DNA from: a virus
Virus record (IMG/VR): IMGVR_UViG_3300042468_000945
Coordinates: 54,099 to 118,098 of that record
Reading direction: 5' to 3' (one strand)
Length of the DNA: 64,000 nucleotides
Shown: one piece after another, positions 5,645 through 54,988 of the stretch
How the letters are laid out: every line of letters starts with the position of its first letter
How positions within the stretch are numbered: the stretch's first letter is position 1
The notes under the pieces: generated by a model
Seen by the model: only the letters and a program-made list of their open reading frames with translations
Told to the model about the DNA's origin: nothing
Database searches by the model: none
Program-made: the position numbers and the translations under genes

Positions 5645-6055
5645 TTATATAGTATAATTTACCCTATCAAAAACTAAACCTTTCTGTAAGTCTAATTGAC
5701 TGCTAACTTGAATTACTTTATCTGGATCATCTTTTGATGGTAATTCAATAAGTATAAATACCTCATCTTTATCTAAAGGGATACACGTAACTTCAACACT
5801 AGATAATGATAAGTCAAACAAGAGAGCACTTCTTACCCTGTTTTCAATTCTTAGCCTTGTTGCTGTAGAGTTCTCTTCACCTATAAAATCTTCTAAGCTT
5901 ACACCAATTTCAGGTTCAAGTAAGTTATCACCTGCTGTTGTTTTTAGTAAAAATACAATTTGTTGTGCTAACTGCTCATCACCTGAAACAACAGCTAAGT
6001 CTCCGTTTGCTCCAATAATAAGATCTCCGTTATCTGTTATTTTTAAATCTGTCAT
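5645..6055 (-). CDS. Baseplate wedge gp25-like protein
   Basis: DLKITDNGDL...QQIVFLLKT..GD..LEPEIGVSLEDFIG pattern; 136 aa; upstream of baseplate J. Confidence 0.75.
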   Translation of the reverse strand: MTDLKITDNGDLIIGANGDLAVVSGDEQLAQQIVFLLKTTAGDNLLEPEIGVSLEDFIGEENSTATRLRIENRVRSALLFDLSLSSVEVTCIPLDKDEVFILIELPSKDDPDKVIQVSSQLDLQKGLVFDRVNYTI

Positions 6056-6594
6056 TTTAAGTTCTCCATGTAATAAGTTAAGTGATCCATTTCTGGTGAG
6101 TCTACTAAATCATAATCAACAAATAAAGTATCATTATTGCAGTAATTAGATAGGGGCTTTTTATTTATAATTTCCCCTGTTTCTGGAATAACTCTTGTTG
6201 TATCATCCATAACATATATTTTACTAATATCAACATCTTTTTTAATTAGTAAAACATTATAGTCTTCATTTATTTTGGGATTAAAAACTTTATTACCTAC
6301 AGGTAATGAAAACCAATCAGTATTTGGAAATGAAATAAACTTAGAGGTTACAATAGTTGAATTAGAAAGAAGGTATAATCCACCACTCATGTCCCCAAGC
6401 ATTCTTACCTGTCCAGCATAGATATCAAACTGACCTTGATCTCTAAATATAGCACCTACAGGAAGATCAGGGTGTCTTAATCCAATATCACTATCTGAAT
6501 AAGTTAATTGATTTGATCGTATAGTATCATTCGTAACTTCTTCACTATACCTATCAATAGCTATCCTTGTTTGATCAAACATACTTAAACTCAT
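6052..6594 (-). CDS. Hypothetical protein (baseplate region)
   Basis: 180-aa ORF with 4-nt overlaps to both neighbours. Confidence 0.55.
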   Translation of the reverse strand: MSLSMFDQTRIAIDRYSEEVTNDTIRSNQLTYSDSDIGLRHPDLPVGAIFRDQGQFDIYAGQVRMLGDMSGGLYLLSNSTIVTSKFISFPNTDWFSLPVGNKVFNPKINEDYNVLLIKKDVDISKIYVMDDTTRVIPETGEIINKKPLSNYCNNDTLFVDYDLVDSPEMDHLTYYMENLK

Positions 6595-7292
6595 TTTATT
6601 GTTGTCCCTGGCCCAAACGGATTCATTGGCTTAACAATGTTTCCTGTATTTGGTTTATTTATTTTATCTAATACTGATGGTAAGAATAAAGAAGTACCAG
6701 TTGCATTATTAGTCCCCTGAGAGGTTTTTGTTAAACCAGGTGTTTGTGGTTTTTCTTTATTACTTTTCCAGTTTTCAGGTACTTGTTGTGCTCCAAGTTT
6801 ACTGCCTTCAGGTGTTGGTCCTATGTCCCCAACCATAGGTGCAGGTGTACCAACATCGTTTGTTAAAGTACCACCTCTAGGTTGCTTCTTGGTCCTACCA
6901 GCAATAATAGTAGGCATTTGTATTCTACCAGCTGCAAAGTTAATTTCTGCCTCAATAAAATTATCACGAAGAAGCTCAGAATTAAAGTCACCGGTTTTTC
7001 CAGTATTGCCAGCTAGACCAGCCCAAGAAACTTTAGGGTTGAATATGGTACGATAATCCACCCCTTCAGAACTTCTACAAACAACTGCAAAACCTATTTT
7101 AGATGCTTTAGCTTTCTGTGCCCAACTCTCCTCACTATAAAGATTAATACTAGTCGTAGACCTCATCCAAGGACTCTTGGCAAACTCTGCAACGACATCA
7201 CCAGCATTTACCAAAATACCGCTAGTATATGTTAAGTTCTCTCTAATATTCTTTATATTATTCTTATCTAATTGATCTTTATAGTCGCTCAT
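6591..7292 (-). CDS. Hypothetical protein (possible baseplate hub/spike component)
   Basis: ORF track start at 7370 overlaps the upstream gene by 73 nt; the ATG at 7292 (MSDYKDQ), just after the upstream stop, is preferred. Function inferred from position only. Confidence 0.5.
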   Translation of the reverse strand: MSDYKDQLDKNNIKNIRENLTYTSGILVNAGDVVAEFAKSPWMRSTTSINLYSEESWAQKAKASKIGFAVVCRSSEGVDYRTIFNPKVSWAGLAGNTGKTGDFNSELLRDNFIEAEINFAAGRIQMPTIIAGRTKKQPRGGTLTNDVGTPAPMVGDIGPTPEGSKLGAQQVPENWKSNKEKPQTPGLTKTSQGTNNATGTSLFLPSVLDKINKPNTGNIVKPMNPFGPGTTIK

Positions 7293-31103: not shown

Positions 31104-31937
31104 TTATCCTATAAATAAATCTTCTAATTTAATAATCTGAATGTTTTTAGCTTGGAAAGTATAAGTTTCCATCAATGCTCTACCATCATCTGAAATTACT
31201 TTACTAATTCCACCAAGACTAACACCTACAAGTTTTAATCCGCTTGCAATTTTAGTGTCTGCTTTTGGGTCGTTAGTTGTAGTTGCATCACTTACTAGTG
31301 TATCACTACCTGTAAATCTTAATACTTGTTCACTTTTTATTTGTGAACCATAAATAATATTTAAATCAAAACCACCTAAAGTTGTCTCTAACATACCTGA
31401 ATTGTTGGATATGTTTGCTTGACTGTTAGGGGTAGATGTTTGTAATTCCCTATCATTAACTGTTTTAATAATGTCTGAGAGGAGTTTGCCTTTATATTTA
31501 CCTGCTTTAATGTCTGCTTTAATTGTATCATCATAATTAAAAGCACCATATTCAGTCAATACAGCAGGAATGGGGGAATTAACCTCACTATCTCTTGATG
31601 CAGGTAACCAATTATCCTCTTTCTTTAAGGCATCAAGTAAAGAAAAAAGATAACCATCTCTCTTAAAGTTAAGGGTTAACTCACCAGCAACTATTCTTTG
31701 TCCGTGAATAATTCTATTTGCTACATGACTTGCATAATTATACAGTGGTCTTATTGGTTCTAGAATTTGATATGAGACTTGTACAGCTTCTTCTAGCCTA
31801 ATATTATTAGCATAAACGTTTACATCTAAACCAGACCAGTAAGTAGAATTATAACTATCAACGACTCTCCACCTTTCTTCACTGTTGTAAGATAATCCAC
31901 CCCTCACATTCAATGAGTCTCTATTGGTTTCTTCCAT
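31104..31937 (-). CDS. Tail tube-like protein (paralog 3)
   Basis: WSGLDVNVY...HGQRIVAGELTL...GFDLNI; aligns by eye with 33653..34456. Confidence 0.65.
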   Translation of the reverse strand: MEETNRDSLNVRGGLSYNSEERWRVVDSYNSTYWSGLDVNVYANNIRLEEAVQVSYQILEPIRPLYNYASHVANRIIHGQRIVAGELTLNFKRDGYLFSLLDALKKEDNWLPASRDSEVNSPIPAVLTEYGAFNYDDTIKADIKAGKYKGKLLSDIIKTVNDRELQTSTPNSQANISNNSGMLETTLGGFDLNIIYGSQIKSEQVLRFTGSDTLVSDATTTNDPKADTKIASGLKLVGVSLGGISKVISDDGRALMETYTFQAKNIQIIKLEDLFIG

Positions 31938-31939
31938 GT

Positions 31940-33598
31940 TTACGCCTCTCCTGTATTAGTATTTGATATGGTACTTATAATATCCTCATTGTACAAGAAA
32001 ATGCTCTCAGCATCTTGAGCTAAGAAATCAAACCCAGCAGAACTTGTGTTTACGGAGTTTTTATTCTGTTTCTTTATATAAGTACCAGACCTTGCACCAT
32101 TGTCTTCATATTTAAGTCCGCTATTGCTTATTAAAAGGTAAGGATTAGGAATAAATTCAGTTGAACCGTCAAGGTCACCTCTTGTTGACTGGGTAGTGCC
32201 AGATCCTCCGCTACTCCTTGCACCTAGTCTGTCGTCTGGTACTACTATAATACCCCCACCGCCGCCACCGCCTCCTCCACCTCCACCACCGCTTGGTGGT
32301 GGTGTGTTTGGTTGTGGTGTTACTGGTGCGTTAGGTACAAGAGCATCACAATCAGTCACAACTCCATCTATAATAGCAAACTTATTGTGGTTCCATATAT
32401 CACCACTAAGATAAGCATGGCTTGGACCTTTTAATGTTATATTTACAACACTACCATACCCATCATCAACAATATCAAGAATTTGAATTGGATTAAAGTC
32501 TTTATCCAACAGAAAGTCCCCAATATGTAGTTCACTTAATAGCTTGTATTTGTCACAATCATCTTTACTAACACAAAATCTGTGGGTTTTGGTGCATTTA
32601 ATTATGCCATTGTTTGTGTAAACTCTGTATACTTTTTGGTTTGCAGCATGTTTAATGTGGGTGATTTCTTCTTCACCAAACCATGAATCAACAAACTCAC
32701 CAACAACTAAATCTTCTACTTTCTTACGTCCATTTTTTGTAGGTACTTCAGATCCATATCTTAAACAATTAATACAAGTTAGACCTAAATCTCCTGAGTC
32801 TGGAACCTCTTCTGGAGGTATGATAGGTGGGGTGTTTGGACTAGTTCCACCTCCACTTAAACCAGAATCAACCCCAGTTAAGTCACCACTAACAGCACCA
32901 ACTAAAGCCGCAATAATGGTGTTGGTTAAAATAATAGAAGGAAGTGTACCCACCACTTTATCAGCAGTAGCTTGTACTTTGCTTGTCGTTGTTTTACTAT
33001 AAACATCAAACCCAGACAAGTCTTGTATTTCAGATATGGCTTCTGCCATAAAGCTAAAAGTTTCATTAAGCACAATATTATCTGTACTTACACTCTTAGC
33101 AGAGTCCAGGATGTGTATCCCTCTAATATGGAAATAAGCGTTATCTCCTTTTATTTGGCTACTTTCAAATAAAACCAATAGATCAAAAGGAGGCAATTCA
33201 TCAGGCAGAATTGTGTAGGATTGGAAAGCATTCCCCATCCATGCAGCGTATTCTCTTATGAGTGGTGCAAATGGGTTTTCATTAATAAACGAAAATGCAA
33301 TGGAACCAGCAACCATTCTATGCCCTTTAGTTGTGGCTCTAATACCTCTTCTACCAAGACTAACTACAGGGTATTTATCTCTGTGAGTAGATATAGAAAG
33401 AAGAGATACGTTATGTAAATCTATTTGGGCTAATTTTGAATTTTGTGCTTGCTTTGAATAAGGAATCAAAGCAGTAATCTTCATATTGGCAAAAGAGTAA
33501 TTCTTTGCTCGTTGCCAGGATACGGGTGGGTTAGAACCTTTAGTCCATACAAATCCACCACCGGTGTTGTCACCAACATTTAGAAGATTACCTGTCAT
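31940..33598 (-). CDS. Tail tube-like protein (paralog 2) fused to a Hint domain
   Basis: N-terminal LGRRGIRATTKGHRMVAGSIAF...LPPFDL tube-like domain; Hint domain at residues 278-405 between Pro/Gly linkers. Confidence 0.7.
   Translation of the reverse strand: MTGNLLNVGDNTGGGFVWTKGSNPPVSWQRAKNYSFANMKITALIPYSKQAQNSKLAQIDLHNVSLLSISTHRDKYPVVSLGRRGIRATTKGHRMVAGSIAFSFINENPFAPLIREYAAWMGNAFQSYTILPDELPPFDLLVLFESSQIKGDNAYFHIRGIHILDSAKSVSTDNIVLNETFSFMAEAISEIQDLSGFDVYSKTTTSKVQATADKVVGTLPSIILTNTIIAALVGAVSGDLTGVDSGLSGGGTSPNTPPIIPPEEVPDSGDLGLTCINCLRYGSEVPTKNGRKKVEDLVVGEFVDSWFGEEEITHIKHAANQKVYRVYTNNGIIKCTKTHRFCVSKDDCDKYKLLSELHIGDFLLDKDFNPIQILDIVDDGYGSVVNITLKGPSHAYLSGDIWNHNKFAIIDGVVTDCDALVPNAPVTPQPNTPPPSGGGGGGGGGGGGGIIVVPDDRLGARSSGGSGTTQSTRGDLDGSTEFIPNPYLLISNSGLKYEDNGARSGTYIKKQNKNSVNTSSAGFDFLAQDAESIFLYNEDIISTISNTNTGEA
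32384..32767 (-). other. Hint (intein-like/BIL-type) autoprocessing domain
   Basis: C1 CLRYGSEV, block B CTKTHRF, block F VVNITL, terminal WNHN followed by Lys; 128 aa; no endonuclease. Confidence 0.85.
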
Positions 33599-33614
33599 AC
33601 AAATTCAAATAGTA

Positions 33615-33638
33615 CCTGGGTGGAGATTTCCACCCAGG
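33615..33638. terminator. Intergenic stem-loop after the tail tube gene
   Basis: cctgggtgga-gatt-tccacccagg, perfect 10-bp stem; followed on the minus strand by TACTATTTG rather than a pure U tract. Confidence 0.6.
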
Positions 33639-33652
33639 ATTTTGTTTAACTA

Positions 33653-34456
33653 TTATCTATTAATAGTTTCAATAGCTGTCCAAGGAGTGACAGCAAGAGC
33701 TACAAAAGCCATACCGACAGAGTTACCCATGTCGTTTTGGCTGTAACCGCCAGTTTCTTGAGTAATTTGAATACCGTGAAGCAGACAACGAGCAGCAGCA
33801 CCAGACTTGTTCACACCAACTAACGCAATGTCAAATGGAGGAATTTGGTCAGAATACATAACCTTCGTATCTCGTACAAACCTAGCAGCATCAATAATTT
33901 GATCTCTAAGTTGGTCTTGTTGATCTTGAGCACTTAGACCTCTGAAGTTAGACAAGTTACCAAGGTTGTTTGCATCAGTATTGCTGAAGCTTGATGTAAC
34001 ACCCAAAGGATTTGATCCCCTTGTATTTGCTGTGTTTACATTTCCATTAGCAAGATTGACTCCATTAGTAGGTGCTCCCGATGAGAGGTTCCACAAGTCG
34101 CCAATTGTACCGATGTCTAAACCATTCACTTTATTGTGAAGTTTAAATACTTGTTGAAGCAATGCGTGTCTTGCAAATTGTTGCAAAACCATAGAACCAA
34201 CTACAACACGCTTACCTTGAGTAAAGGCAACTGGGTCTCTTCGACCCATGACGTGGTTACTAACTGTTTCTGTTTGAATTGTCCAAGATACTGCTTCAAC
34301 GTTACCAACCTTGATTTCGTTGAAGTATACTTGTAGGTCATGACCTGAGAAAGTTGAATCAGCAAAATCCGCAACGCTGAATGCATCTCTAACAGGCTTA
34401 TAGTTCGCACTCTGCGGACTGTATGCGGTTCTTTGAAAAGGGTTTGTTCTAGCCAT
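33653..34456 (-). CDS. Tail tube protein (paralog 1)
   Basis: Directly downstream of the sheath gene; FSGHDLQVYF...MGRRDPVAFTQGKRVVVGSMVL...IPPFDI. Confidence 0.72.
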   Translation of the reverse strand: MARTNPFQRTAYSPQSANYKPVRDAFSVADFADSTFSGHDLQVYFNEIKVGNVEAVSWTIQTETVSNHVMGRRDPVAFTQGKRVVVGSMVLQQFARHALLQQVFKLHNKVNGLDIGTIGDLWNLSSGAPTNGVNLANGNVNTANTRGSNPLGVTSSFSNTDANNLGNLSNFRGLSAQDQQDQLRDQIIDAARFVRDTKVMYSDQIPPFDIALVGVNKSGAAARCLLHGIQITQETGGYSQNDMGNSVGMAFVALAVTPWTAIETINR

Positions 34457-34478
34457 TTTTATATTTTCCTATTATAGA

Positions 34479-36233
34479 TTAGTCAACTTGTCTCACTGAA
34501 ACATTCAACTTAATTTGTCTAATCGCACTAGAAAGAGCAAGTTCTAACAACACAGTTACGATACCTAATGCTGCTTCGGTTCCAGCCATTTCAATGCTGA
34601 AGTCGTATCCTTCTCCTCTACTACCTCTAAGACCACCAGACAATGCGTATCCAGCCAAGACGTTTTCCACCTTAGCTTCCATAGCTGCCTGAGTTCCATA
34701 ACCCAAAGTCTGTCCAATGAACGGTCTAAGAGCAACTTGAATGTCCTTTTGAATAGATGCACACATATTCATTTGCTGATAATTTCTGAAGAAATCATCT
34801 CTAGCAGATGCAGTAACATCATCATTGATAACCAAAGGTCCAAGAGGACTGATTTGGTCTCTGACGAGTACAACGTATGCTCCACCACCGCTGACATTGT
34901 TATTAAGGTCAGCACCTACTCCATTACCTAACAACACAGCAGTGCTTTGTGGGAATGGTCTAGTATAACCTTTAATACCTGGCAGGGTTCTTTGAGTTGT
35001 TGATTGCTCAGGTGGAATAGTAGTCAAGAATGCAGCGTAAGATACGTGTGGTTGGTAGTTGTAATCTCCGCCCATGTCTGGGTGATTGTAGATTACGTCT
35101 GGACCAGCAACAACAGATACGTTACTGAAGACATCTTTAAGAGTGCCATTAGTACCAGATCGAGTTCTTCCAGTAGCAAGAATAGGACCAGCTTTAATCC
35201 ACTTAGATGCTTGTCGGTAATATCCGTATGATGTTGCTAACAACGAATCATTAGCGTAAGTAATGATATCAGCATTATCTCTAAGAGGATTGCTTCTAGT
35301 AGCCATAACTCCATGACATTGTGTTTGCTCTGAGCTTACAGCATCAATGAAGTCAGCAAAGTCATTAAGCAGGGATGTTGAAGTTGCGTTTCCACCAGCA
35401 GTTACCTGGTCATCAACGTGAACACCTGTCAATACAGCTACATCAAATGGGTATCTACTATCTCTAATTGATTGGAATGTTCCAGTCGTTGCGTTAACAA
35501 GTCCGAGAGCATAATCAAACAGACCACTTCCAGATGTTGTAAAGTGTTCAGGACCATAAGTTTCGCCTCTTGCAAAGCAACCATTAGTACCACCTGTAAA
35601 GTTAGCTGTACCAGAAGTTGCAGCATAGATTGAGGACAATGTAGAAGCAAGATATGGATTTACAGTAGCAGAAGTATCATTAAAATCAATACTCTTATTT
35701 GCAAAGTTTGTATTGACTCGAATAATAAATTCGCCTAATGTAGTACCACTTGCGCTACCTGTAAGGACTAGGTTACCACCCTTTGTTAAAGGTTGGGTCA
35801 AGGTAAAGGTATAAAGGTCACCTACAATACCTAGAGATACAGATTGGGTATTGTAGATTCGTCCTGGGTTTCTAGCAACACCTGTTAAGTATCCACCACC
35901 ACCCAAAGTTACAGTTGCTTTGGTTCCTGATGCTCTAACAGCAACAATGTCCCGCGCACCAGCAGCAATTGCTTGTGCAATAGCTAATGGCAGAGTACTT
36001 CCAGCATACTTGTTAGATTCAGTGCCTGTAGTCGGGTCTAGGTAGCCCTTACTATAATTTGCAGGTCCGAATACTCGTTCTGCTTGTGTTCCGTCAGTGA
36101 TACGAACAGGACTATTTAAAGGACCATCCTGTGCTGTACCGATAATAAGTAAAGTGTTTGTTGAAGGACCTTCAACAATTTGCTTTATCTTCCCTCCAAA
36201 AAGTGAAGAGGTAAATCCAGTTCTTATTGCCAT
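34479..36233 (-). CDS. Tail sheath protein
   Basis: LLIIGTAQDGPLNSPVRI..AERVFG N-terminus; sheath-like C-terminus (VALRPFIG...VLLELALSSAIRQIKLNVSV); AGGAG RBS. Confidence 0.85.
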   Translation of the reverse strand: MAIRTGFTSSLFGGKIKQIVEGPSTNTLLIIGTAQDGPLNSPVRITDGTQAERVFGPANYSKGYLDPTTGTESNKYAGSTLPLAIAQAIAAGARDIVAVRASGTKATVTLGGGGYLTGVARNPGRIYNTQSVSLGIVGDLYTFTLTQPLTKGGNLVLTGSASGTTLGEFIIRVNTNFANKSIDFNDTSATVNPYLASTLSSIYAATSGTANFTGGTNGCFARGETYGPEHFTTSGSGLFDYALGLVNATTGTFQSIRDSRYPFDVAVLTGVHVDDQVTAGGNATSTSLLNDFADFIDAVSSEQTQCHGVMATRSNPLRDNADIITYANDSLLATSYGYYRQASKWIKAGPILATGRTRSGTNGTLKDVFSNVSVVAGPDVIYNHPDMGGDYNYQPHVSYAAFLTTIPPEQSTTQRTLPGIKGYTRPFPQSTAVLLGNGVGADLNNNVSGGGAYVVLVRDQISPLGPLVINDDVTASARDDFFRNYQQMNMCASIQKDIQVALRPFIGQTLGYGTQAAMEAKVENVLAGYALSGGLRGSRGEGYDFSIEMAGTEAALGIVTVLLELALSSAIRQIKLNVSVRQVD

Positions 36234-36272
36234 TTGTTATCTCCTAATTATTAATAGAGTGCTTTTTATTCC

Positions 36273-37190
36273 TTAAGTTTCTTCTTTTTTTATGGTTGTA
36301 GGATAATTTAAGTAACCATCCCTAATTGTTTGTGTTGTAGTTCCTGAGTAATAAGCATACTCAACAATGAAGCTTTCGTTTTCTTTGGGTGGTGCCCCAT
36401 ATTCTCTAAGCCATTTAAGACTTTTGATTGTGTTATCAGTTTCTAATACTTTTTGATAGTCTGCACCTTCGTATAGCTCAATAAGTACGGTAGAATTGGG
36501 TTTTCTCTTCCTTACGGAAAGTACTTCTGAGATTCTTTGGTTTGAGTTTCTTGTTGGTATTGTAAATAATGTGCTATTGCTATCTGGTTGAACTATAATG
36601 TCAGTAATGTCTTTCATTAATCCTAACCTTTTTTCTACTCTAATTTCTCGTAGTTCTGGAAGGATTACTTTGCGTCTAACAGGGAAGAGTAACTGAAATC
36701 TGCAAGTTCTAACTAGTAAATCATCAACTCTCTGCCAAGCATAGTGTGTGTCTTCGTATTGTTGTTCAAATGATAGTGATAAACCTTCAACTAGTCTTTG
36801 TAACTCACCTTCACAATCAATTACTGCATTTTCAAGGTCCCAGGCAATGTCATCAGCTTCATCACTAGAACTAGAGAAAACAGAAAACTCTAAGTGTATG
36901 GTGTGTTGTTGTTTGTGTTGTTCTACAACTTGTCCAAACTCATCAGAATGTAATTGTCTCTCAAAATTAGCTCCTCTTGCTTGGGCGGTCTTATTCTTAC
37001 CACCACCAGGAACTCTTTTAATTGTCTTATAAACTATGGTTGATTTATTTACGCTTTCTTTGGGATACGCATTAGAAAACCCAACATCGTATGTGTTTTT
37101 AAAATAATCCCCTATAAGCTCATAAATGTAACTACCAACTTTATAAGGATTAAAGTCGCTCCTATTGTCTGAATTACTATTTAAAAGCAT
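36273..37190 (-). CDS. Hypothetical virion protein (tail completion/terminator-like)
   Basis: 305 aa; IHLEFSVFSSSSDEADDIAWDLE pattern; lies between the sheath paralogs. Confidence 0.45.
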   Translation of the reverse strand: MLLNSNSDNRSDFNPYKVGSYIYELIGDYFKNTYDVGFSNAYPKESVNKSTIVYKTIKRVPGGGKNKTAQARGANFERQLHSDEFGQVVEQHKQQHTIHLEFSVFSSSSDEADDIAWDLENAVIDCEGELQRLVEGLSLSFEQQYEDTHYAWQRVDDLLVRTCRFQLLFPVRRKVILPELREIRVEKRLGLMKDITDIIVQPDSNSTLFTIPTRNSNQRISEVLSVRKRKPNSTVLIELYEGADYQKVLETDNTIKSLKWLREYGAPPKENESFIVEYAYYSGTTTQTIRDGYLNYPTTIKKEET

Positions 37191-37216
37191 ATTTAAACAT
37201 CTTTAACAAATAGAGA

Positions 37217-39145
37217 CTAAGAAACCATAACATTAAATGATATTTTTAGTATCTGAGAAAAAATAAGTCCCTGAATAAATACAGTTAACACACCGTCATT
37301 CAAATAAATAGTGACATCTTCAATAGTTATATTCTTAATTTGGTCTAAGATTCCTTTTAAGGTGTTTGATAAGTTTGATTGGTAGCCTTGTTGTAAATTG
37401 TTTCCAAGGAATTTTCTAAGATATTGTACTGCGTGTTTTTGTATTTCACAAACTTTTGAATTATAATTATAACTGAAAGTAGAATCAGAGCAGACTGAAC
37501 TATCCACAGCCACACTATTATTACCTATCCATCGTCTGAATACATTTATACCATTAAGGTATGCAAATTCAATTTCTGGTTCAGCATAGTTAGGTGTTGT
37601 TCTTAATATTTTACTAGGTTTATTAGTTAACAGACCATCATTTTCTAGTAAAATTAAACTCACAGCATTTACTGAATTCTGTACCCATGTCTGTCCGTTA
37701 ATACTTAAATCACAAGTTCCAGCAAATAATGTTACAAATGGGTGTCGTATTTGTAGTTGTCTTAGGTAAGACATGATATCGTCAACATTGTTTTCATTAC
37801 CAGCAGAAGCCACCACACCCACCGTTACATCGTCAATTGTAGTATTTAAGTGGTCGTCGGTATCTATTAACAATAATTCTATTCGTGTTGCGGGTTTATT
37901 AAATTGACAACCAAAAAAGTATTTTGCTTCGGCTACGACACCAGTTAGTGATGTTGTTTCGTAAATAATATTGTTCTGATCAAAAGCTGTCAATCTGTAG
38001 CTTTCTGATCCTTTACAACTCCAAAAACCAAAAGAACTTATTTTTTTGTTTGCTGGAGGAGTGAATGTCAATGCTCCTGAACTTACTGGGAAAAGCCTAA
38101 GTGACTTTGTTCCAGAGTACGCAACATACCCTGAAGTAGTAGGGTTTAAATTGTCAACTACAATAGCTCCTGTTGGCGAGATTGAACAACCTTCTATTGT
38201 GCTCAAAACAGTTCCACTTAATGTAGCCTCAAAAGTGTTTATTGGTGCAAACGGGTTTTGCAAGCCAAAAGTAGTTGATGCAACCAATCCCCCACTATAG
38301 TTAACACCACCAACAAGTCTTGGAACTTGGAAGCAAAATTGTCTTAATTGATTAAAATTATCGTTGTAGAAGTCTGATATTCTTCCCATTATATTGTTAT
38401 CAATGTGTCCAAGAACAACAACATGAGTAACATTATATGGAATCTCATTAATATCTAAAAACTCATTAATACTATTAAAATCAACAGCACCATCTGAACC
38501 ATTAGATAATGTATAAGTGTCGTCAGGTGGGAAAGCTTCTATATTATATTTACTAATATAAAAAGGCAATAACCCACTATCACAGTCTCTGTTTATCTTA
38601 CTAACAACAGTGTCAACATCACCAAAATAAGTTTTTTCAGGGTAGTTTTCAAATGCTTCAAAGATAATTCCTGATGTGCTTATATCTAAGCTAATATTAT
38701 TGTATTTTATTCCACGATATTTGGATGTAAAAACCCAATCATCTAGATCACAATTTGCAGATACTCCACCTAACCTACCACAATAGAAATTAGTTTGACC
38801 GTTTTCAAGTAAGTAAGTGGCATTACTAATAATGTCAGATGATTCTGTATAGGGACAATAATGTAAATTAAGTAACTTACCTGTACCTCCAATTGACCCA
38901 AAATAAAGTGTTTTATCTTGTACTGTTGGAGAATATAGAATACCAGTCAACAAGGTATCTGAATTCTTTACAGTTGTTTGTGGTGTATAATCCAGTATTG
39001 CTGATGTAGCTGTCGCTGTAAGGGATACGTTTTGTATGTACTCTCCACCAAATGTCTGTTTAAGTGTTGTTAAGTTATTAACTTGAACACAAGTATTTGA
39101 TGGTCCATCAGTAGCTGTACCTAATATTAAAACGTTTGTCGCCAT
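37217..39145 (-). CDS. Second tail sheath-like protein with inserted domain
   Basis: MATNVLILGTATDGP...LKQTFGG parallels the sheath N-terminus; LRKFLG in the C-terminal region; about 150-aa beta-rich insert. Confidence 0.65.
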   Translation of the reverse strand: MATNVLILGTATDGPSNTCVQVNNLTTLKQTFGGEYIQNVSLTATATSAILDYTPQTTVKNSDTLLTGILYSPTVQDKTLYFGSIGGTGKLLNLHYCPYTESSDIISNATYLLENGQTNFYCGRLGGVSANCDLDDWVFTSKYRGIKYNNISLDISTSGIIFEAFENYPEKTYFGDVDTVVSKINRDCDSGLLPFYISKYNIEAFPPDDTYTLSNGSDGAVDFNSINEFLDINEIPYNVTHVVVLGHIDNNIMGRISDFYNDNFNQLRQFCFQVPRLVGGVNYSGGLVASTTFGLQNPFAPINTFEATLSGTVLSTIEGCSISPTGAIVVDNLNPTTSGYVAYSGTKSLRLFPVSSGALTFTPPANKKISSFGFWSCKGSESYRLTAFDQNNIIYETTSLTGVVAEAKYFFGCQFNKPATRIELLLIDTDDHLNTTIDDVTVGVVASAGNENNVDDIMSYLRQLQIRHPFVTLFAGTCDLSINGQTWVQNSVNAVSLILLENDGLLTNKPSKILRTTPNYAEPEIEFAYLNGINVFRRWIGNNSVAVDSSVCSDSTFSYNYNSKVCEIQKHAVQYLRKFLGNNLQQGYQSNLSNTLKGILDQIKNITIEDVTIYLNDGVLTVFIQGLIFSQILKISFNVMVS

Positions 39146-50304: not shown

Positions 50305-51542
50305 ACTTTACCTTTTAGCCATTTTTTCATAATACTAGCTGCTTGTTGTGCTTTACCAGTAGCATTAATGGGTGGAGTTTGTGGGTAATTTTTAGCTTTG
50401 GTTGTTTCCTCTAAAAATTCTTTAGCAGATATACCCTCTTTTTTAATTTGTTTTTCGTAGTTTTTTATTGATTTGTTTAGTCCAAGGAATATTTTATTTA
50501 GTGTTGAATCAACTAAATTTCCGTATAGCTTTTGTCTTACCTCATAAGCTTGGAAAAATTGTTGGTCTTGAACTAGAAATTCACTTTCAACATTCTTTAA
50601 AGCATCAAACAAAGATTTTTCTATTGTTTGTCTGTACTTTAAAAGTATAGGGTCTGCTGTAAACGTAGAATTATCTCTCTCCACATCCTCAGTCAAGTTT
50701 AATAGAATATCTTTAGTTCTGTATAGGTAATCAAACCCCCAACTACGAGATAACTTACCATAATTATTACCTGAAACTGTCCCTAGAGAGGTGTCTAAAG
50801 CAGTATCTAGCATTTTAAATTCATCATACAATCTGTCAACTTCTGTAACAAAAGAGAAGTTAGAGAACGATAAATACTTATTAATCTCGTTAGGGTATGT
50901 ACTTGCTAGGTTAAGAATTCCTTTAACAGCATCTTCACTAATAATATCTTCAACTAAACCTTTAATTTTAGATATGTTTTCTCTTATGTTATTAGCTAGT
51001 TGTTGATCCTTTAAGATTACACCAATTAACAATCTTTTTACTGTATCAGAGTTTAAATTATCTCTTTCTAAAAGGGGCATATAAACATTTTCGTAAGCAT
51101 TTTGAATTACAGCTAACTGTCCCCTGCTTCTATAATAGTCTTTAACTAATATAATTTCTGGGTTAGTTTGTCTTCTATAAATGTCCCTTTCAATTATTGT
51201 TTGAATGTTTTCTGGGGGAACTTGTGTTGTTTTATAGTTAGAATCATAAGGGGTGGCAAATTGTACTTTTGCAGCAGCAAAAAATGCGCTAAATACTTCG
51301 TCGTCAGAGTATTTAGCTTCTATTCTATTAATTTCTTCCTGTACTAGACTTGTAGTTGTCTTTACAATATCATATGTATCTTTAAGATAAGAATATGGAG
51401 AAGTTAACTCTACTTTAGTCTGGTTATTGTTCTCAGAGTTGGTTATTTTAATGGAAGTGGTGTCTTCTAGGGTTGTTAAAAGTTGGTCAACCTTCTTTTC
51501 TATTTCTCTTTTATCAATAAAACCAGAAAAACTATTGTTCAT
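50301..51542 (-). CDS. Hypothetical protein
   Basis: 413-aa helical-looking ORF coupled to the terminase stop (TAATG). Confidence 0.6.
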   Translation of the reverse strand: MNNSFSGFIDKREIEKKVDQLLTTLEDTTSIKITNSENNNQTKVELTSPYSYLKDTYDIVKTTTSLVQEEINRIEAKYSDDEVFSAFFAAAKVQFATPYDSNYKTTQVPPENIQTIIERDIYRRQTNPEIILVKDYYRSRGQLAVIQNAYENVYMPLLERDNLNSDTVKRLLIGVILKDQQLANNIRENISKIKGLVEDIISEDAVKGILNLASTYPNEINKYLSFSNFSFVTEVDRLYDEFKMLDTALDTSLGTVSGNNYGKLSRSWGFDYLYRTKDILLNLTEDVERDNSTFTADPILLKYRQTIEKSLFDALKNVESEFLVQDQQFFQAYEVRQKLYGNLVDSTLNKIFLGLNKSIKNYEKQIKKEGISAKEFLEETTKAKNYPQTPPINATGKAQQAASIMKKWLKGKV

Positions 51543-54500
51543 TAAAAATTATCCCTCTCATAACCATAAATTGAATCATCCAAAGATGATCTACTATAGA
51601 GAAAATCTACTGCTTCAAACTCATCTAAATCCATATTTAACATATTATTTTTAATTTGTCTTACAGCATCTTCTTCTGATGGTACAGCTATAACCCCAAA
51701 ATTATCTAAACTTTCGTTAGTCATAGTGTAAGGGTTCTCAAATAATGTAAATATCCCAAACATAGCAAACAAGAAACAGTCAATAATGTGCTCGTTCTTG
51801 CTTGTAAACTTAACAGTATTAGCTGTGGTTTTAATTACTTTATAATCTAAGAATTGTTTTTGAATGTCTTCTCTATTCTTGGGAATCATAAGAAGACTTT
51901 GTTGTGTTTTAGCTCGGAGGAGTTCTACAAGATATGGTTTTACTTTTATCTTCCTATCTTCTCCAGTAAGTTGATCAGGAACTACGACATTGGATTGGAA
52001 AGCTAACCTTGTAAGTTTTTGAGCTAAACCAAGCTCTGGTCGCAGTAAAGCAATACTATTTAAGTCTTCCCATTGCTTCTCAGAGGCCCCTTGGTCAATA
52101 ATCACAAGTGTAGGATTGAACACCTCAAAAAGTTCAACTATTCTGTTAACTGCTAAGGTATAAGTCCACTCACCCTTTGATATCTCTTCGTGCCATATAA
52201 ATTTAAGATTTTTTAGGTAGGGATCATATTGAGAAATAAGGATATTGGTTCCGCACTGTACTTTATCCCAGTCAACCGTTAAGAATATTGGATTATGTGG
52301 GTGAACCTGTTCCATTGACGGTTCCCAATCATATTTGAAAACATTATCAATATCTTCTTTTTTAAAGACTGCACTATCTTCTTCTGCAACTTCTAATAGG
52401 TACTCAGTTGTCCAGGTTGCTTCGCTATTGACAGCAATCCTTTCTTCTTCAATCATATCAAAATCCCATTCTTCATTTTCAGTAATGGGAATTTTAATTA
52501 TTGTTTCATTTTTTGATTTTTTTAAGTTCTTTTCAATTTTCTCGTAGTATTCACCTTCTGCTTTATTAAGAGTACCAGCAACATACGTCCTAATAGATTT
52601 ACGTCTTGTTAAGTCACCACGCATGATTGGCTTAATAACCCTCCAGTCTTCATCGGAGAGTCCTTGACCTTCATCAACAAACACCACGTCAGCAGTAATA
52701 CCACGAAGTTTGTCAGGAGCAGTACCGTTTACACCAAGAATATGTCCATGAATAGTAGAACCAGTAATAAATGTTCTCTTCATTGGGGCACTTGAGTTAC
52801 CTACTGGGTGTACAAACTCTTTTAGTAATGGATTAGCACCAATCCAATCATCAATTGCTTTAAAGAATTCAAGAATTTGAGTGCTTGATGGTGCAAACAC
52901 ATGAATAGCTTTACCCTCTCTTGTTACAGCATGCCATAAAGCAAGTACTGAAAAACAGAAACTATTATGAACAACTACATTGTTTGCTGAGAAGGAGAAG
53001 TTACAATTATCTTTGAGAATGATGTCATATACTTCCCGAATCCCTGCATTTGTTATATTAACAACAAGTTCCCACCTTCTAGGATTTTTAGCTTCGTGTA
53101 TAGCAACGTCTAGGTCTAAAATATCTCTTAAAAACAGATCAGCATCTAAACTATCATCTATTCTTATAAGACCATCCTTTGTCACCCTACAGAAAATATT
53201 AAATCTAAGTAATAGGTGTTGTAAATCAAAAGCAAATGGCTTATTAAATATGGATAAGGTAATATTTTTTTGTTTGTGGTCTAAACGACCATAATTAACA
53301 AATAAAATTTTAAAATAATTCTTTAATGTTAGATAATCAAAATTAAATACAACATCAGGAATGTGGTTCTTGGATATTGTAAAGTTAGCAATATCTTCAA
53401 GTTCTTCGTCAGTTACAGTATTAACTCCATGTTCATATGAACTAAAAGCAAGTATTTGATCACCTATTTTAATTTCACTTGCAGGAATCCAACCACTTTT
53501 CTTTTCATAAACAAGGTGGTCTAAAGAGGGGGTAAGTGACACGCCTGACTCTAATCTAAATTTTACGCAATTTTTATAAATGGGTATTGATAAACTTGCA
53601 CCTGAGTTTTCTGGTTTATTTGAATTTAAGTTGTAGGTAACAGTATTAAAATTATCTTTTACATCTTTAAGTCTTATTGGTCTTAATGTATCTGCATCAA
53701 CAATGAATGAATTCTTATCTAGGCAATTGTGCGTAGGAGTATAGTTATCAGTTATGTATAAATGATCTTCGTCACCAACTGTTATACATTGCATCTCCAC
53801 TCTGGAATCTAATTTTTCAACCTTAACTATAGTTCGTCTTAGATACCTTTCAGGAAGCCCAACACAATTTTTTCTTTCTAAATTGAAGATATTTAGTTCT
53901 GCTGGTACTGTAATGTGTGCTCTGTATCTAGTACCTGTAACCTTTCTTACACCATCCAAAGTGTAACACGCATCAGACTCCTTCACAGACACCTTACAAC
54001 CCAAAGATCGTGCAAGATCAGCAACATCATGGGTGAGTTGTTTAGATACAGTACAAAACTCTGCTGAACCATTCTTATTTCTTTCAGCATGACCATCTGT
54101 GTCCATTAAACCACGTAACAACCAAAGACGTTGTTCAACACTACTATACTTGTAAATATCAGGTATAAACTTAGTATGAGATTTTTTATTTGTCAGCCCT
54201 AAAGATTCTAGGTCTGGGAGGTATTCTTTTCCAAAATCTAAGAAATATCTTTTTGCCTTACTCTTAGTCTCAGAGACTCTTTTTAATTCAAAGCCAGTTC
54301 TTTTTTGAATGGTAGTAATGATTTCTTCATCAGCACTTGTAATCTCACCTGTTGATAGTGAACCATCACCCAATAATACACCCATTAAGTATGGGTCAAT
54401 AGGAAGTGTATTGGCACTATGCTCAACAGGTTTAACAGGGTTTAATTTATATCTGAACTCAGCTTTGTCACTGTACTTATAAATGTATGTGTTGAGAATC

Positions 54501-54988
54501 TCTTCTGTAGTTTTAACTACATTGCCACGTTGAAGTTTTCTTGTTAATCTAGATCCTTTACTTCCAAGTGCAGTATAAATCTCCCATTCGTGGTCTTTAC
54601 CCGAATCCACATAAGTACCATCTGATAAGTGGATTCTGTAAACATCTTGTATTCCATGAGGTATAATATTAGTTACAGGTGCTGTTTTACCATTCGGGGT
54701 AGACACTGTTGTACCTATTTTGACATCCCCCATTCTTATAGGACCTTTTGGAGTATACACTAAGGAGTCCAAAGGTTGCATTTTCCCGGCACGTCGATGG
54801 ACACATACCCAAGTATCTCGGGCAGTAGAGCTCATTATGATTCTTTGGGGGTACTGAGCCTTGAATGGCTTGTATGGGGGTCCTGGGTTTGGACTGAATA
54901 GAAACGTCTCAGCAAACGTTAAAGGACTGCTTTTTGCTTTCTGAAAAGCCTCCACCATTTCTGGTGTTAATTCATTCTGATCGAACAT
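51542..54988 (-). CDS. terL: Terminase large subunit with two tandem inteins
   Basis: AQYPQ adenine-binding Q, Walker A HRRAGK|S split by inteins, Walker B VVFVDEGQ, nuclease FLTVDWD and HIIDC; 542 aa after removing both inteins. Confidence 0.93.
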   Translation of the reverse strand: MFDQNELTPEMVEAFQKAKSSPLTFAETFLFSPNPGPPYKPFKAQYPQRIIMSSTARDTWVCVHRRAGKMQPLDSLVYTPKGPIRMGDVKIGTTVSTPNGKTAPVTNIIPHGIQDVYRIHLSDGTYVDSGKDHEWEIYTALGSKGSRLTRKLQRGNVVKTTEEILNTYIYKYSDKAEFRYKLNPVKPVEHSANTLPIDPYLMGVLLGDGSLSTGEITSADEEIITTIQKRTGFELKRVSETKSKAKRYFLDFGKEYLPDLESLGLTNKKSHTKFIPDIYKYSSVEQRLWLLRGLMDTDGHAERNKNGSAEFCTVSKQLTHDVADLARSLGCKVSVKESDACYTLDGVRKVTGTRYRAHITVPAELNIFNLERKNCVGLPERYLRRTIVKVEKLDSRVEMQCITVGDEDHLYITDNYTPTHNCLDKNSFIVDADTLRPIRLKDVKDNFNTVTYNLNSNKPENSGASLSIPIYKNCVKFRLESGVSLTPSLDHLVYEKKSGWIPASEIKIGDQILAFSSYEHGVNTVTDEELEDIANFTISKNHIPDVVFNFDYLTLKNYFKILFVNYGRLDHKQKNITLSIFNKPFAFDLQHLLLRFNIFCRVTKDGLIRIDDSLDADLFLRDILDLDVAIHEAKNPRRWELVVNITNAGIREVYDIILKDNCNFSFSANNVVVHNSFCFSVLALWHAVTREGKAIHVFAPSSTQILEFFKAIDDWIGANPLLKEFVHPVGNSSAPMKRTFITGSTIHGHILGVNGTAPDKLRGITADVVFVDEGQGLSDEDWRVIKPIMRGDLTRRKSIRTYVAGTLNKAEGEYYEKIEKNLKKSKNETIIKIPITENEEWDFDMIEEERIAVNSEATWTTEYLLEVAEEDSAVFKKEDIDNVFKYDWEPSMEQVHPHNPIFLTVDWDKVQCGTNILISQYDPYLKNLKFIWHEEISKGEWTYTLAVNRIVELFEVFNPTLVIIDQGASEKQWEDLNSIALLRPELGLAQKLTRLAFQSNVVVPDQLTGEDRKIKVKPYLVELLRAKTQQSLLMIPKNREDIQKQFLDYKVIKTTANTVKFTSKNEHIIDCFLFAMFGIFTLFENPYTMTNESLDNFGVIAVPSEEDAVRQIKNNMLNMDLDEFEAVDFLYSRSSLDDSIYGYERDNF
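52964..53725 (-). mobile_element. Class-1 intein with degenerate endonuclease remnant (residues 422-675)
   Basis: Starts CLDKNS; block B PSLDHL, block F VYDII, ends VVHN followed by Ser; remnant IPDVVF...DLQHLLLRFNI lacks acidic LAGLIDADG motifs. Confidence 0.9.
53726..54781 (-). mobile_element. Class-3 intein with LAGLIDADG homing endonuclease (residues 70-421)
   Basis: Starts MQPLDS; block B DHEW (Trp), block F MQCITV (Cys), block G PTHN (Thr); endonuclease motifs LMGVLLGDGS and LRGLMDTDG. Confidence 0.9.

Follow-up and report, generated by a model that had tools for sequence, protein, structure and literature searches.

Here we describe a 552-amino-acid protein, encoded at 31940-33598 on the minus strand of a 64,000-nucleotide stretch of viral DNA, in which a tail-tube paralog carries a 128-residue Hint domain ending in His-Asn and followed by lysine. 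The stretch (hereafter the window) spans positions 54,099 to 118,098, the last 64 kb, of the 118-kb IMG/VR virus record IMGVR_UViG_3300042468_000945, which has an estimated completeness of 66%. The Hint is probably a self-excising domain of the type A bacterial intein-like (BIL) or PT-HINT-like kind, placed in the variable C-terminal extension of a tube paralog related to gp141 of Bacillus phage 0305phi8-36. The BIL and PT-HINT class of chemistry has already been described in secreted proteins of bacteria and in polymorphic toxins; what appears to be new is the setting, that is, a tail-tube paralog as host, a seemingly broad association with phage virion proteins, and a lysine at the +1 position that is conserved across a clade. 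Full-text literature searches for phage Hints turned up classical inteins of terminase, RNR and enzymes of that sort and nothing on tail-protein Hints lacking a +1 nucleophile, which are thus essentially undescribed.

The Hint occupies residues 278-405 (32384-32767, minus strand, as for all parts of this gene) and has no endonuclease insert. An AlphaFold2 (AF2) model of residues 268-420, computed from a 24-row alignment of the collected Hint relatives that also served for the conservation counts, reached a predicted local distance difference test score (pLDDT) of 86.7 and a predicted template modelling score of 0.80. When this model was compared with the PDB by Foldseek, the best match was the gp41-1 intein (6qaz; E 1.1e-10, template modelling score 0.89-0.91, root-mean-square deviation 1.6-1.7 Å), which is also found by phmmer from sequence (E 0.002). 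Further matches include the Tetrahymena BUBL domain BIL2 (6y75, E 1e-9), a Clostridium thermocellum BIL domain (2lwy, E 1.4e-9), DnaB mini-inteins and Hedgehog (1at0); there were 65 PDB matches at E<=1e-3, and among the matches listed all are inteins, BILs or Hedgehog. A search of BFVD returned many phage proteins named just 'Hint', together with inteins of terminase, RNR and polymerase. On the strength of the predicted structure, residues 278-405 are a Hint fold, the assignment that the earlier note had put forward from the letters alone.

The residues expected of an active Hint are in place. Cys278 (32765-32767) is Hint Cys1, the predicted nucleophile for an N-S acyl shift at the N277/C278 junction, and is present in 24/24 aligned Hints. 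Block B reads T336-K-T-H339 (TxxH; 32582-32593), in an alignment column with Thr in 17/24 and Ser in 7/24 at the first position and His in 19/24 and Gln in 5/24 at the last. The domain closes with H404-N405, followed by K406 at +1 (32381-32389); at these positions His is found in 24/24, Asn in 23/24 and Lys in 14/24 of the Hints. K406 is encoded by AAG, and both the window protein and its sister, described below, lack the Cys, Ser or Thr that class 1 inteins require at +1. The sequence H404-N405-K406 agrees with the residue definition of a type A BIL.

The identity of the host protein comes from its N-terminal part and from its neighbors. Residues 1-205 (approximate limits; 32984-33598) form a tube-like domain, of which residues ~9-202 match PHROG 9206 (E 2.9e-14) and which is homologous to gp141 of 0305phi8-36 (ORF141, EF583821.1; tblastn 3e-10), the founding member of the PHROG match and a protein annotated by mass spectrometry as part of the virion. 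All three proteins after the tail sheath match PHROG 9206 (E 1e-31, 3e-14 and 6e-5), whose label, 'major head protein', is wrong. In the GenBank record of 0305phi8-36, ORF139 is the tail sheath, ORF140 the tail tube and ORF141 a 'tail tube paralog', after which come ORF142, two tail chaperonins and the giant ORF145. The window shows the same order, all on the minus strand: the sheath (34479-36233; PHROG tail sheath, E 3e-26), a 267-residue tube-family protein (33653-34456), the 552-residue protein, a third, 277-residue paralog (31104-31937), two 228-residue open reading frames (ORFs) at the chaperonin position, and a 2062-residue protein at the position of the giant tape-measure. Because the two gene orders are equal, we regard the 552-residue gene as the counterpart of gp141, to which it is homologous in sequence and whose conserved place downstream of the sheath and major tube genes it shares. 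By homology and synteny, then, the virus is an uncultured 0305phi8-36-like jumbo myophage and the gene is its second tail-tube paralog, of the gp141 type. The sheath protein had no tblastn match among cultured phages, so we draw no conclusion about the host.

The resemblance to gp141 includes the homologous N-terminal domain, the gene position and a long C-terminal extension (gp141 has 502 residues in total). The two proteins differ in that identity is only ~28%, confined to the tube domain, and in that the gp141 extension has no Pfam match at E<=0.1 and no Hint detected in it. More generally, an exhaustive HMMER scan returned 1291 representative proteins at E<=1e-3, of which the best 150 all match through the tube part. 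The closest among these 150 (P0002 and P0004-P0008) consist of a tube domain and a hypervariable tail of 60-150 residues rich in Ser, Thr, Pro and Gly, so that, apart from the sister, the nearest relatives carry no Hint and their tails are variable and disordered. A profile of 40 tube-domain homologs found no sequence in the PDB, PF09393 had no match in the genome, and the ESM Atlas gave leads only, to clusters with minority members annotated as DUF2001 (19%) or Phi812_tail_tube (11%). That the protein is a 'tail-tube initiator', as the earlier note called it, is an unsupported guess, since the evidence extends to a gp141-type tube paralog only; it is a plausible guess in that the major tube protein, which lies within a sheath, would hardly be expected to bear an appendage of 350 residues.

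On the N-terminal side the Hint is preceded by a Pro/Gly/Ser-rich linker (residues 206-277; 32768-32983) ending in SGDLG-LTCIN, with C275 three residues ahead of Cys1. The SGxLG motif is common to this linker, the sister protein and the Hint-less P0002, and the longer flank PPE(E/V)V..SGDLG has its homolog in the P0002 tail. The CxxC motif formed by C275 and C278 (LTCINC) is present in the window protein as the earlier note had said, and it is not conserved, since the sister has SSEC at the equivalent place. A role for the pair as a redox trap (cf. PDB 3nzm) was considered and given low weight, C275 being absent from the sister.

On the C-terminal side lies a segment running from KFAIIDGVV to TPPPS (residues 406-436; 32291-32383), in which IDGVV weakly resembles the C-terminal IDWVV of P0002, a 4/5 match in low-complexity sequence. 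The Hint-bearing region is a hypervariable disordered tail for which Hint-less homologs share the N-flank SGDLG and match the C-flank weakly. The next 13 residues (437-449; 32252-32290) are all glycine, as first noticed, and are encoded by a mixture of GGT, GGA, GGC and GGG codons, so the run is not a homopolymer artefact. It leads into a C-terminal tail (residues 450-552; 31943-32251) of no recognisable family. The description of this tail as short was mistaken, with 147 residues following Asn405 and 103 following the glycine run. Residues 406-552 had no match in Pfam, the Atlas or phmmer, and residues 451-552 none in the 95%-complete genome of the sister phage (G001). The tail has pLDDT below 50 in a poorly supported AF2 model (residues 268-552, 4-row alignment, overall pLDDT 33).

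The sister protein (P0001, 404 residues) is encoded at 5965-7179 of L002, a 235-kb viral contig that is 95% complete, and again on a second contig, L003, with the same gene order. It is 50% identical to the window protein in the tube domain and 40% identical in the Hint, which is inserted after the same SGxLG motif, keeps Cys1, a block B of TSH and HN followed by Lys, and is trailed by only 21 residues past the Asn. Since the tube-Hint architecture and HN/K recur in independent contigs, a sequencing or frameshift artefact was rejected. A tree of the tube domain pairs the two Hint-bearing proteins (support 93/89) and places the Hint-less P0002, P0005 and P0004 next to them; this suggests a single gain of the Hint in the common ancestor of the window phage and the sister lineage, followed by long retention.

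Between L002 and L003, which are 99.3% identical, the Hint differs by 8 synonymous and 3 non-synonymous codon changes (ratio of non-synonymous to synonymous change, pN/pS, ~0.11; binomial P 6e-4), and in the window the GC content at third codon positions of the Hint, 0.22, is like that of the remaining gene. Judged from these sequence comparisons, the Hint is old, ameliorated and under purifying selection, with all catalytic positions kept, which argues against a decaying remnant. A separate observation on the same pair of genes (5965-7179) is that 11 of 129 codons are changed in the Hint vs 2 of 205 in the tube domain (Fisher P 9e-4), a clustering that may reflect recombination or a faster local rate of change.

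The lysine at +1 extends beyond these two phages. A profile built from eight Hints that end at HN, and hence blind to the +1 residue, had Lys at +1 in most of its top matches. Among these, P0153-P0156 contain three or four Hints in tandem, with K-G(GG)-C after each of them; four proteins (P0157, P0158, P0159 and P0161) end in HNK-stop; and three (P0163, P0165 and P0167) have HN/K plus tails. More distant PT-HINT toxin proteins carry A, N, C, T or V at this position, and true inteins of DnaE, RNR and helicases S, C or T. A further locus (L008, 2658-4396 of IMGVR_UViG_3300044611_000205) encodes two tandem paralogs composed of FN3, a PPFF repeat and a Hint, both ending HNK-stop. Because this locus was found through a motif without lysine, it and the profile matches are independent evidence for the lysine.

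The same does not hold for five loci (L011-L015), which were found with a pattern containing HNK and so provide no independent evidence. Four of these have the Hint behind a low-complexity linker, at or near the C-terminus, of a 1122-residue protein without a family match (L011), a tape-measure protein (L012), a tail-fibre protein on a 434-kb phage (L014) and a virion structural protein (L015), and the last three pass the Pfam cut-off for PT-HINT (51.6, 31.4 and 32.0 bits, respectively). The tape-measure protein (2-2287 of IMGVR_UViG_3300050505_000042) matches PHROG 24 and has a G12 run, long poly-Pro linkers and a PT-HINT ending HN/K, beyond which a tail of 113 residues contains the motif AEAGVPEAAIPL. 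No phage match was found for this tail when it was sought as an intein-like insertion, and the relatives of its Hint in cultured phages are ordinary helicase and portal inteins. Taken as a pattern in sequence, these cases point to a Hint clade, characterised by the +1 lysine, whose members lie in virion proteins of uncultured phages: tape-measure, tail-fibre and FN3 proteins.

Several characterized Hint systems can be set beside the window protein. The gp41-1 mini-intein (6qaz/6riz), the closest match whether sequence or structure is compared, is of similar size and likewise lacks an endonuclease; it belongs to the canonical class 1 inteins and has Ser at +1, although the solved chain stops at the Asn. 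The window Hint differs in having Lys at +1 and in lying in a disordered tail rather than at a conserved enzyme site. In BIL2 (6y75/6tmm) and Hedgehog (1at0) the N-terminal fragment moves from the Cys1 thioester to a nucleophile outside the canonical set, namely a Lys epsilon-amine in BIL2 and cholesterol in Hedgehog; these proteins are eukaryotic, have other flanking domains and show 15-16% identity to the window Hint. PT-HINT proteins (PF07591) share with the window protein the order of structural or delivery part, linker, Hint and C-terminal piece, and Hint-profile relatives of the window domain carry PF07591 annotations, three phage relatives exceeding the cut-off. The window Hint itself has no PF07591 match, and its C-terminal piece is lineage-specific and has no recognisable toxin domain in Pfam or the Atlas.

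The closest correspondence in residues is with the type A BIL domains, which reportedly go back to Amitai (2003) and Dassa (2004). As in these, the window protein has a mini-Hint with Cys1, TxxH, a C-terminal His-Asn and no Cys, Ser or Thr at +1, and the protein that houses it is not an enzyme and is variable in that region. The hosts are different, bacterial secreted proteins in the one case and a phage tail-tube paralog in the other, and so is the +1 residue, which here is a clade-conserved Lys. With HN in place but the +1 nucleophile missing, type A BILs cannot form a branched ester intermediate; they are reported to combine formation of an N-terminal thioester with C-terminal cleavage by Asn cyclisation, giving mainly cleavage products and a low level of ligation through attack of the liberated amino group on the thioester (Mills et al. 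2014, PMC4031507). This mechanism fits the residues of the window protein, and 2lwy is among its structural matches. The resemblance to bacterial intein-like and pre-toxin Hints drawn by the earlier note has held up, these being the closest functional analogues by Foldseek and by the PT-HINT scores of the relatives. Its statement that Lys at +1 makes canonical splicing impossible is right in that the +1 nucleophile is absent, and too strong in that type A BILs are reported to splice at a low level (PMC4031507).

From these parts a self-processing pathway can be proposed. A gp141-type paralog that normally has a variable, mostly disordered C-terminal extension would have received the 128-residue mini-Hint there in an ancestor. 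Once folded, the Hint would use Cys278 to attack the carbonyl of N277, generating a thioester by N-S acyl shift, and cyclisation of Asn405 would break the N405-K406 bond; no branched ester could intervene, as the +1 nucleophile is missing. Water could then resolve the thioester, giving a 277-residue tube protein, a free Hint and a 147-residue tail, or the freed amine of Lys406 could rejoin the flanks into a 424-residue tube paralog, whose tail would resemble the tails of the Hint-less relatives. Self-processing of this kind is the best inference from the Hint fold, the intact Cys1, TxxH and HN, the conserved +1 Lys, the purifying selection and the BIL and PT-HINT analogues.

As to the outcome, simple self-removal by cleavage is favoured as the conserved one because the sister has 21 residues after the Asn and several relatives end in HNK-stop. 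Ligation is kept alive by the invariant Lys, the homology of the N-flank (with a possible match on the C-flank) and the tandem and permuted arrangements. If the domain is active, we would lean toward mainly cleavage over substantial ligation, with no great confidence. Given the same short or absent C-terminal pieces, together with the failure to match residues 451-552 in the sister genome, the suggested release or attachment of a C-terminal peptide cannot be the conserved purpose, and no evidence links the chemistry with assembly or injection, as had also been suggested.

A number of points weigh against a self-excising domain of this kind. The window Hint lies under every curated sequence-family threshold, scoring 19.2-21.8 bits with PF14890 (cut-off 35.8) and 20.8 bits with TIGR01445 (cut-off 24.5), while PF07591 gives no match to it and 13.4 bits to the sister (cut-off 27.7); because all these scores fall short, the assignment depends on the structure predicted from the 24-row alignment. 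The chemistry is inferred throughout, for the window protein and for its close relatives alike. Block B His is replaced by Gln in Hints of the L008 type, and activity across the clade is thus not guaranteed. With just two or three Hint-bearing tube paralogs on record, the selection test uses 11 substitutions; none of the 50,697 records in a collection of cultured phages carries the tube-Hint fusion. Finally, simple cleavage leaves the role of the conserved Lys unaccounted for.

An alternative is that the Hint is a true splicing element with an undescribed mechanism, in effect a selfish or neutral one. Lys406 would supply the nucleophile with its amine, whether the alpha-amine after cyclisation or the epsilon-amine directly, and splicing would restore the ancestral tail with no structural use. 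The +1 Lys is kept clade-wide whatever comes next, be it a stop, a short or long tail, or a further Hint in tandem (HN/K-G(GG)-C); and the N-flank homology to the tail of P0002, together with the similarity of IDGVV to IDWVV, is what would be expected of an insertion into an existing tail. The nearest match in both sequence and structure is a true mini-intein, gp41-1; inteins are tolerated in the terminase of the same phage; and an ORF of another phage with the permuted order IntC-K-126 residues-IntN is easiest explained by ligating Hints. Chemical precedent exists in type A BIL splicing and in the Lys isopeptides of BIL2 (PMC4031507, PMC8616854). Against this, reported type A BILs chiefly cleave (PMC4031507), proteins ending HNK-stop would gain at most one Lys from ligation, a homing endonuclease is absent, the Hint is not placed at a conserved, essential site, and the C-flank similarity is the short, low-complexity match noted above. 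We hold such an element to be unlikely, with an appreciable minority chance of being correct. The claim that the Hint is put to structural use and is not a selfish intein is nonetheless weakened, as the domain sits in a disordered hypervariable tail, where it would do little harm.

A wider form of the idea is that HN/K Hints constitute an undescribed ligating class in which the amine of the +1 lysine replaces the Cys, Ser or Thr nucleophile, and which phages might use in virion proteins for traceless self-removal, for tail restoration (the tube paralog), and for backbone cyclisation or head-to-tail polymerisation of a structural module (L013, IntC-K-X-IntN). We regard this as unlikely, and it would be of high interest if true.

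An improbable alternative to the self-excising domain is a Hint that is catalytically silent in this protein, a folded bead or decoration on the tail of the tube paralog, with purifying selection acting on the fold only. Other members of the gp141 family have unrelated extensions, either folded or disordered, so a compact domain might be tolerated; the loss of block B His in L008-type relatives and the weak sequence-family scores would be in keeping with this. A structural bead, however, would not require Cys1, TxxH, HN and the +1 Lys, all of which are kept at 40% identity, and in a contractile tail it would be hard to accommodate a tube-like subunit that bears a bulky 128-residue domain and a further tail, unless the domain were removed. 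It is very improbable that the Cys278 thioester is resolved in trans by an amine or another nucleophile of a different virion or host molecule, anchoring the C-terminus of the tube paralog covalently during tail assembly in the manner of Hedgehog or BUBL: the structural matches include both Hedgehog and BIL2, the latter of which reportedly forms ATP-independent Lys-epsilon isopeptide bonds to other proteins (PMC8616854), and Hint relatives stand at the extreme C-terminus of tail-fibre and FN3 proteins, where only an N-side reaction can matter, but no candidate acceptor was identified, the conserved Asn405 and Lys406 are left unexplained, and the proposal is wholly one of analogy.

The self-excising reading thus concerns a Hint that, by its residues, is catalytically intact and, by its distribution, long retained in a tail-tube paralog. 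If such Hints self-process, the predicted and mature masses of virion proteins would differ, which matters for phage proteomics and for model building in cryo-electron microscopy. If the lysine were to act as acyl acceptor, it would offer the intein field a natural ligation chemistry independent of Cys, Ser and Thr, of a kind sought by protein engineers.

Two broader searches with the Hint returned nothing further: a word-indexed search with the Hint alone gave no match among longer proteins, and a scan of metagenome contigs with the Hint alignment gave 248 pattern matches, of which 0 were confirmed.

In the remainder of the window, the tail module (31104-39145, minus strand), with its three tube-family paralogs of 267, 552 and 277 residues, parallels ORF137-ORF145 of 0305phi8-36 and includes a 642-residue ORF (37217-39145, minus strand) at the position of the sheath paralog ORF137. 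The large terminase (51542-54988, minus strand; 1148 residues) has Intein_splicing, LAGLIDADG and Hom_end domains ahead of Terminase_6N. That the tube Hint is a copy of these terminase inteins was rejected, there being no similarity between them (BLASTP E 0.21).

Unusual Hint arrangements were also seen in other genomes. The tandem proteins P0153-P0156 begin with ~27 residues, continue with directly adjoining Hints and end with ~440-530 non-Hint residues; one of them, P0156, is named by its source as a Micrarchaeia TIM44-like protein. A 258-residue ORF (L013, 3398-4174 of IMGVR_UViG_3300046804_004993) is a circularly permuted Hint, in which 24 residues of Hint blocks F and G ending HN/K are followed by a 126-residue domain without assignment and a 107-residue Hint N-part with Cys1 and SESH. 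Profile positions 106-135 are matched upstream of positions 1-104 in a single frame, the preceding gene ends TAATAA, and the joined IntN and IntC align end to end with the window Hint. This IntC-X-IntN layout is the one employed in artificial designs for intein-mediated cyclisation. Lastly, Prevotella phage Lak-B4 (MK250023.1; L004, 2970-3450) has a gp41-1-like mini-intein running from Cys1 to HN/S, which under table 11 occupies a tiny ORF with 8 residues before and 5 after it; the host gene is probably read with a stop codon that is reassigned in that phage group.

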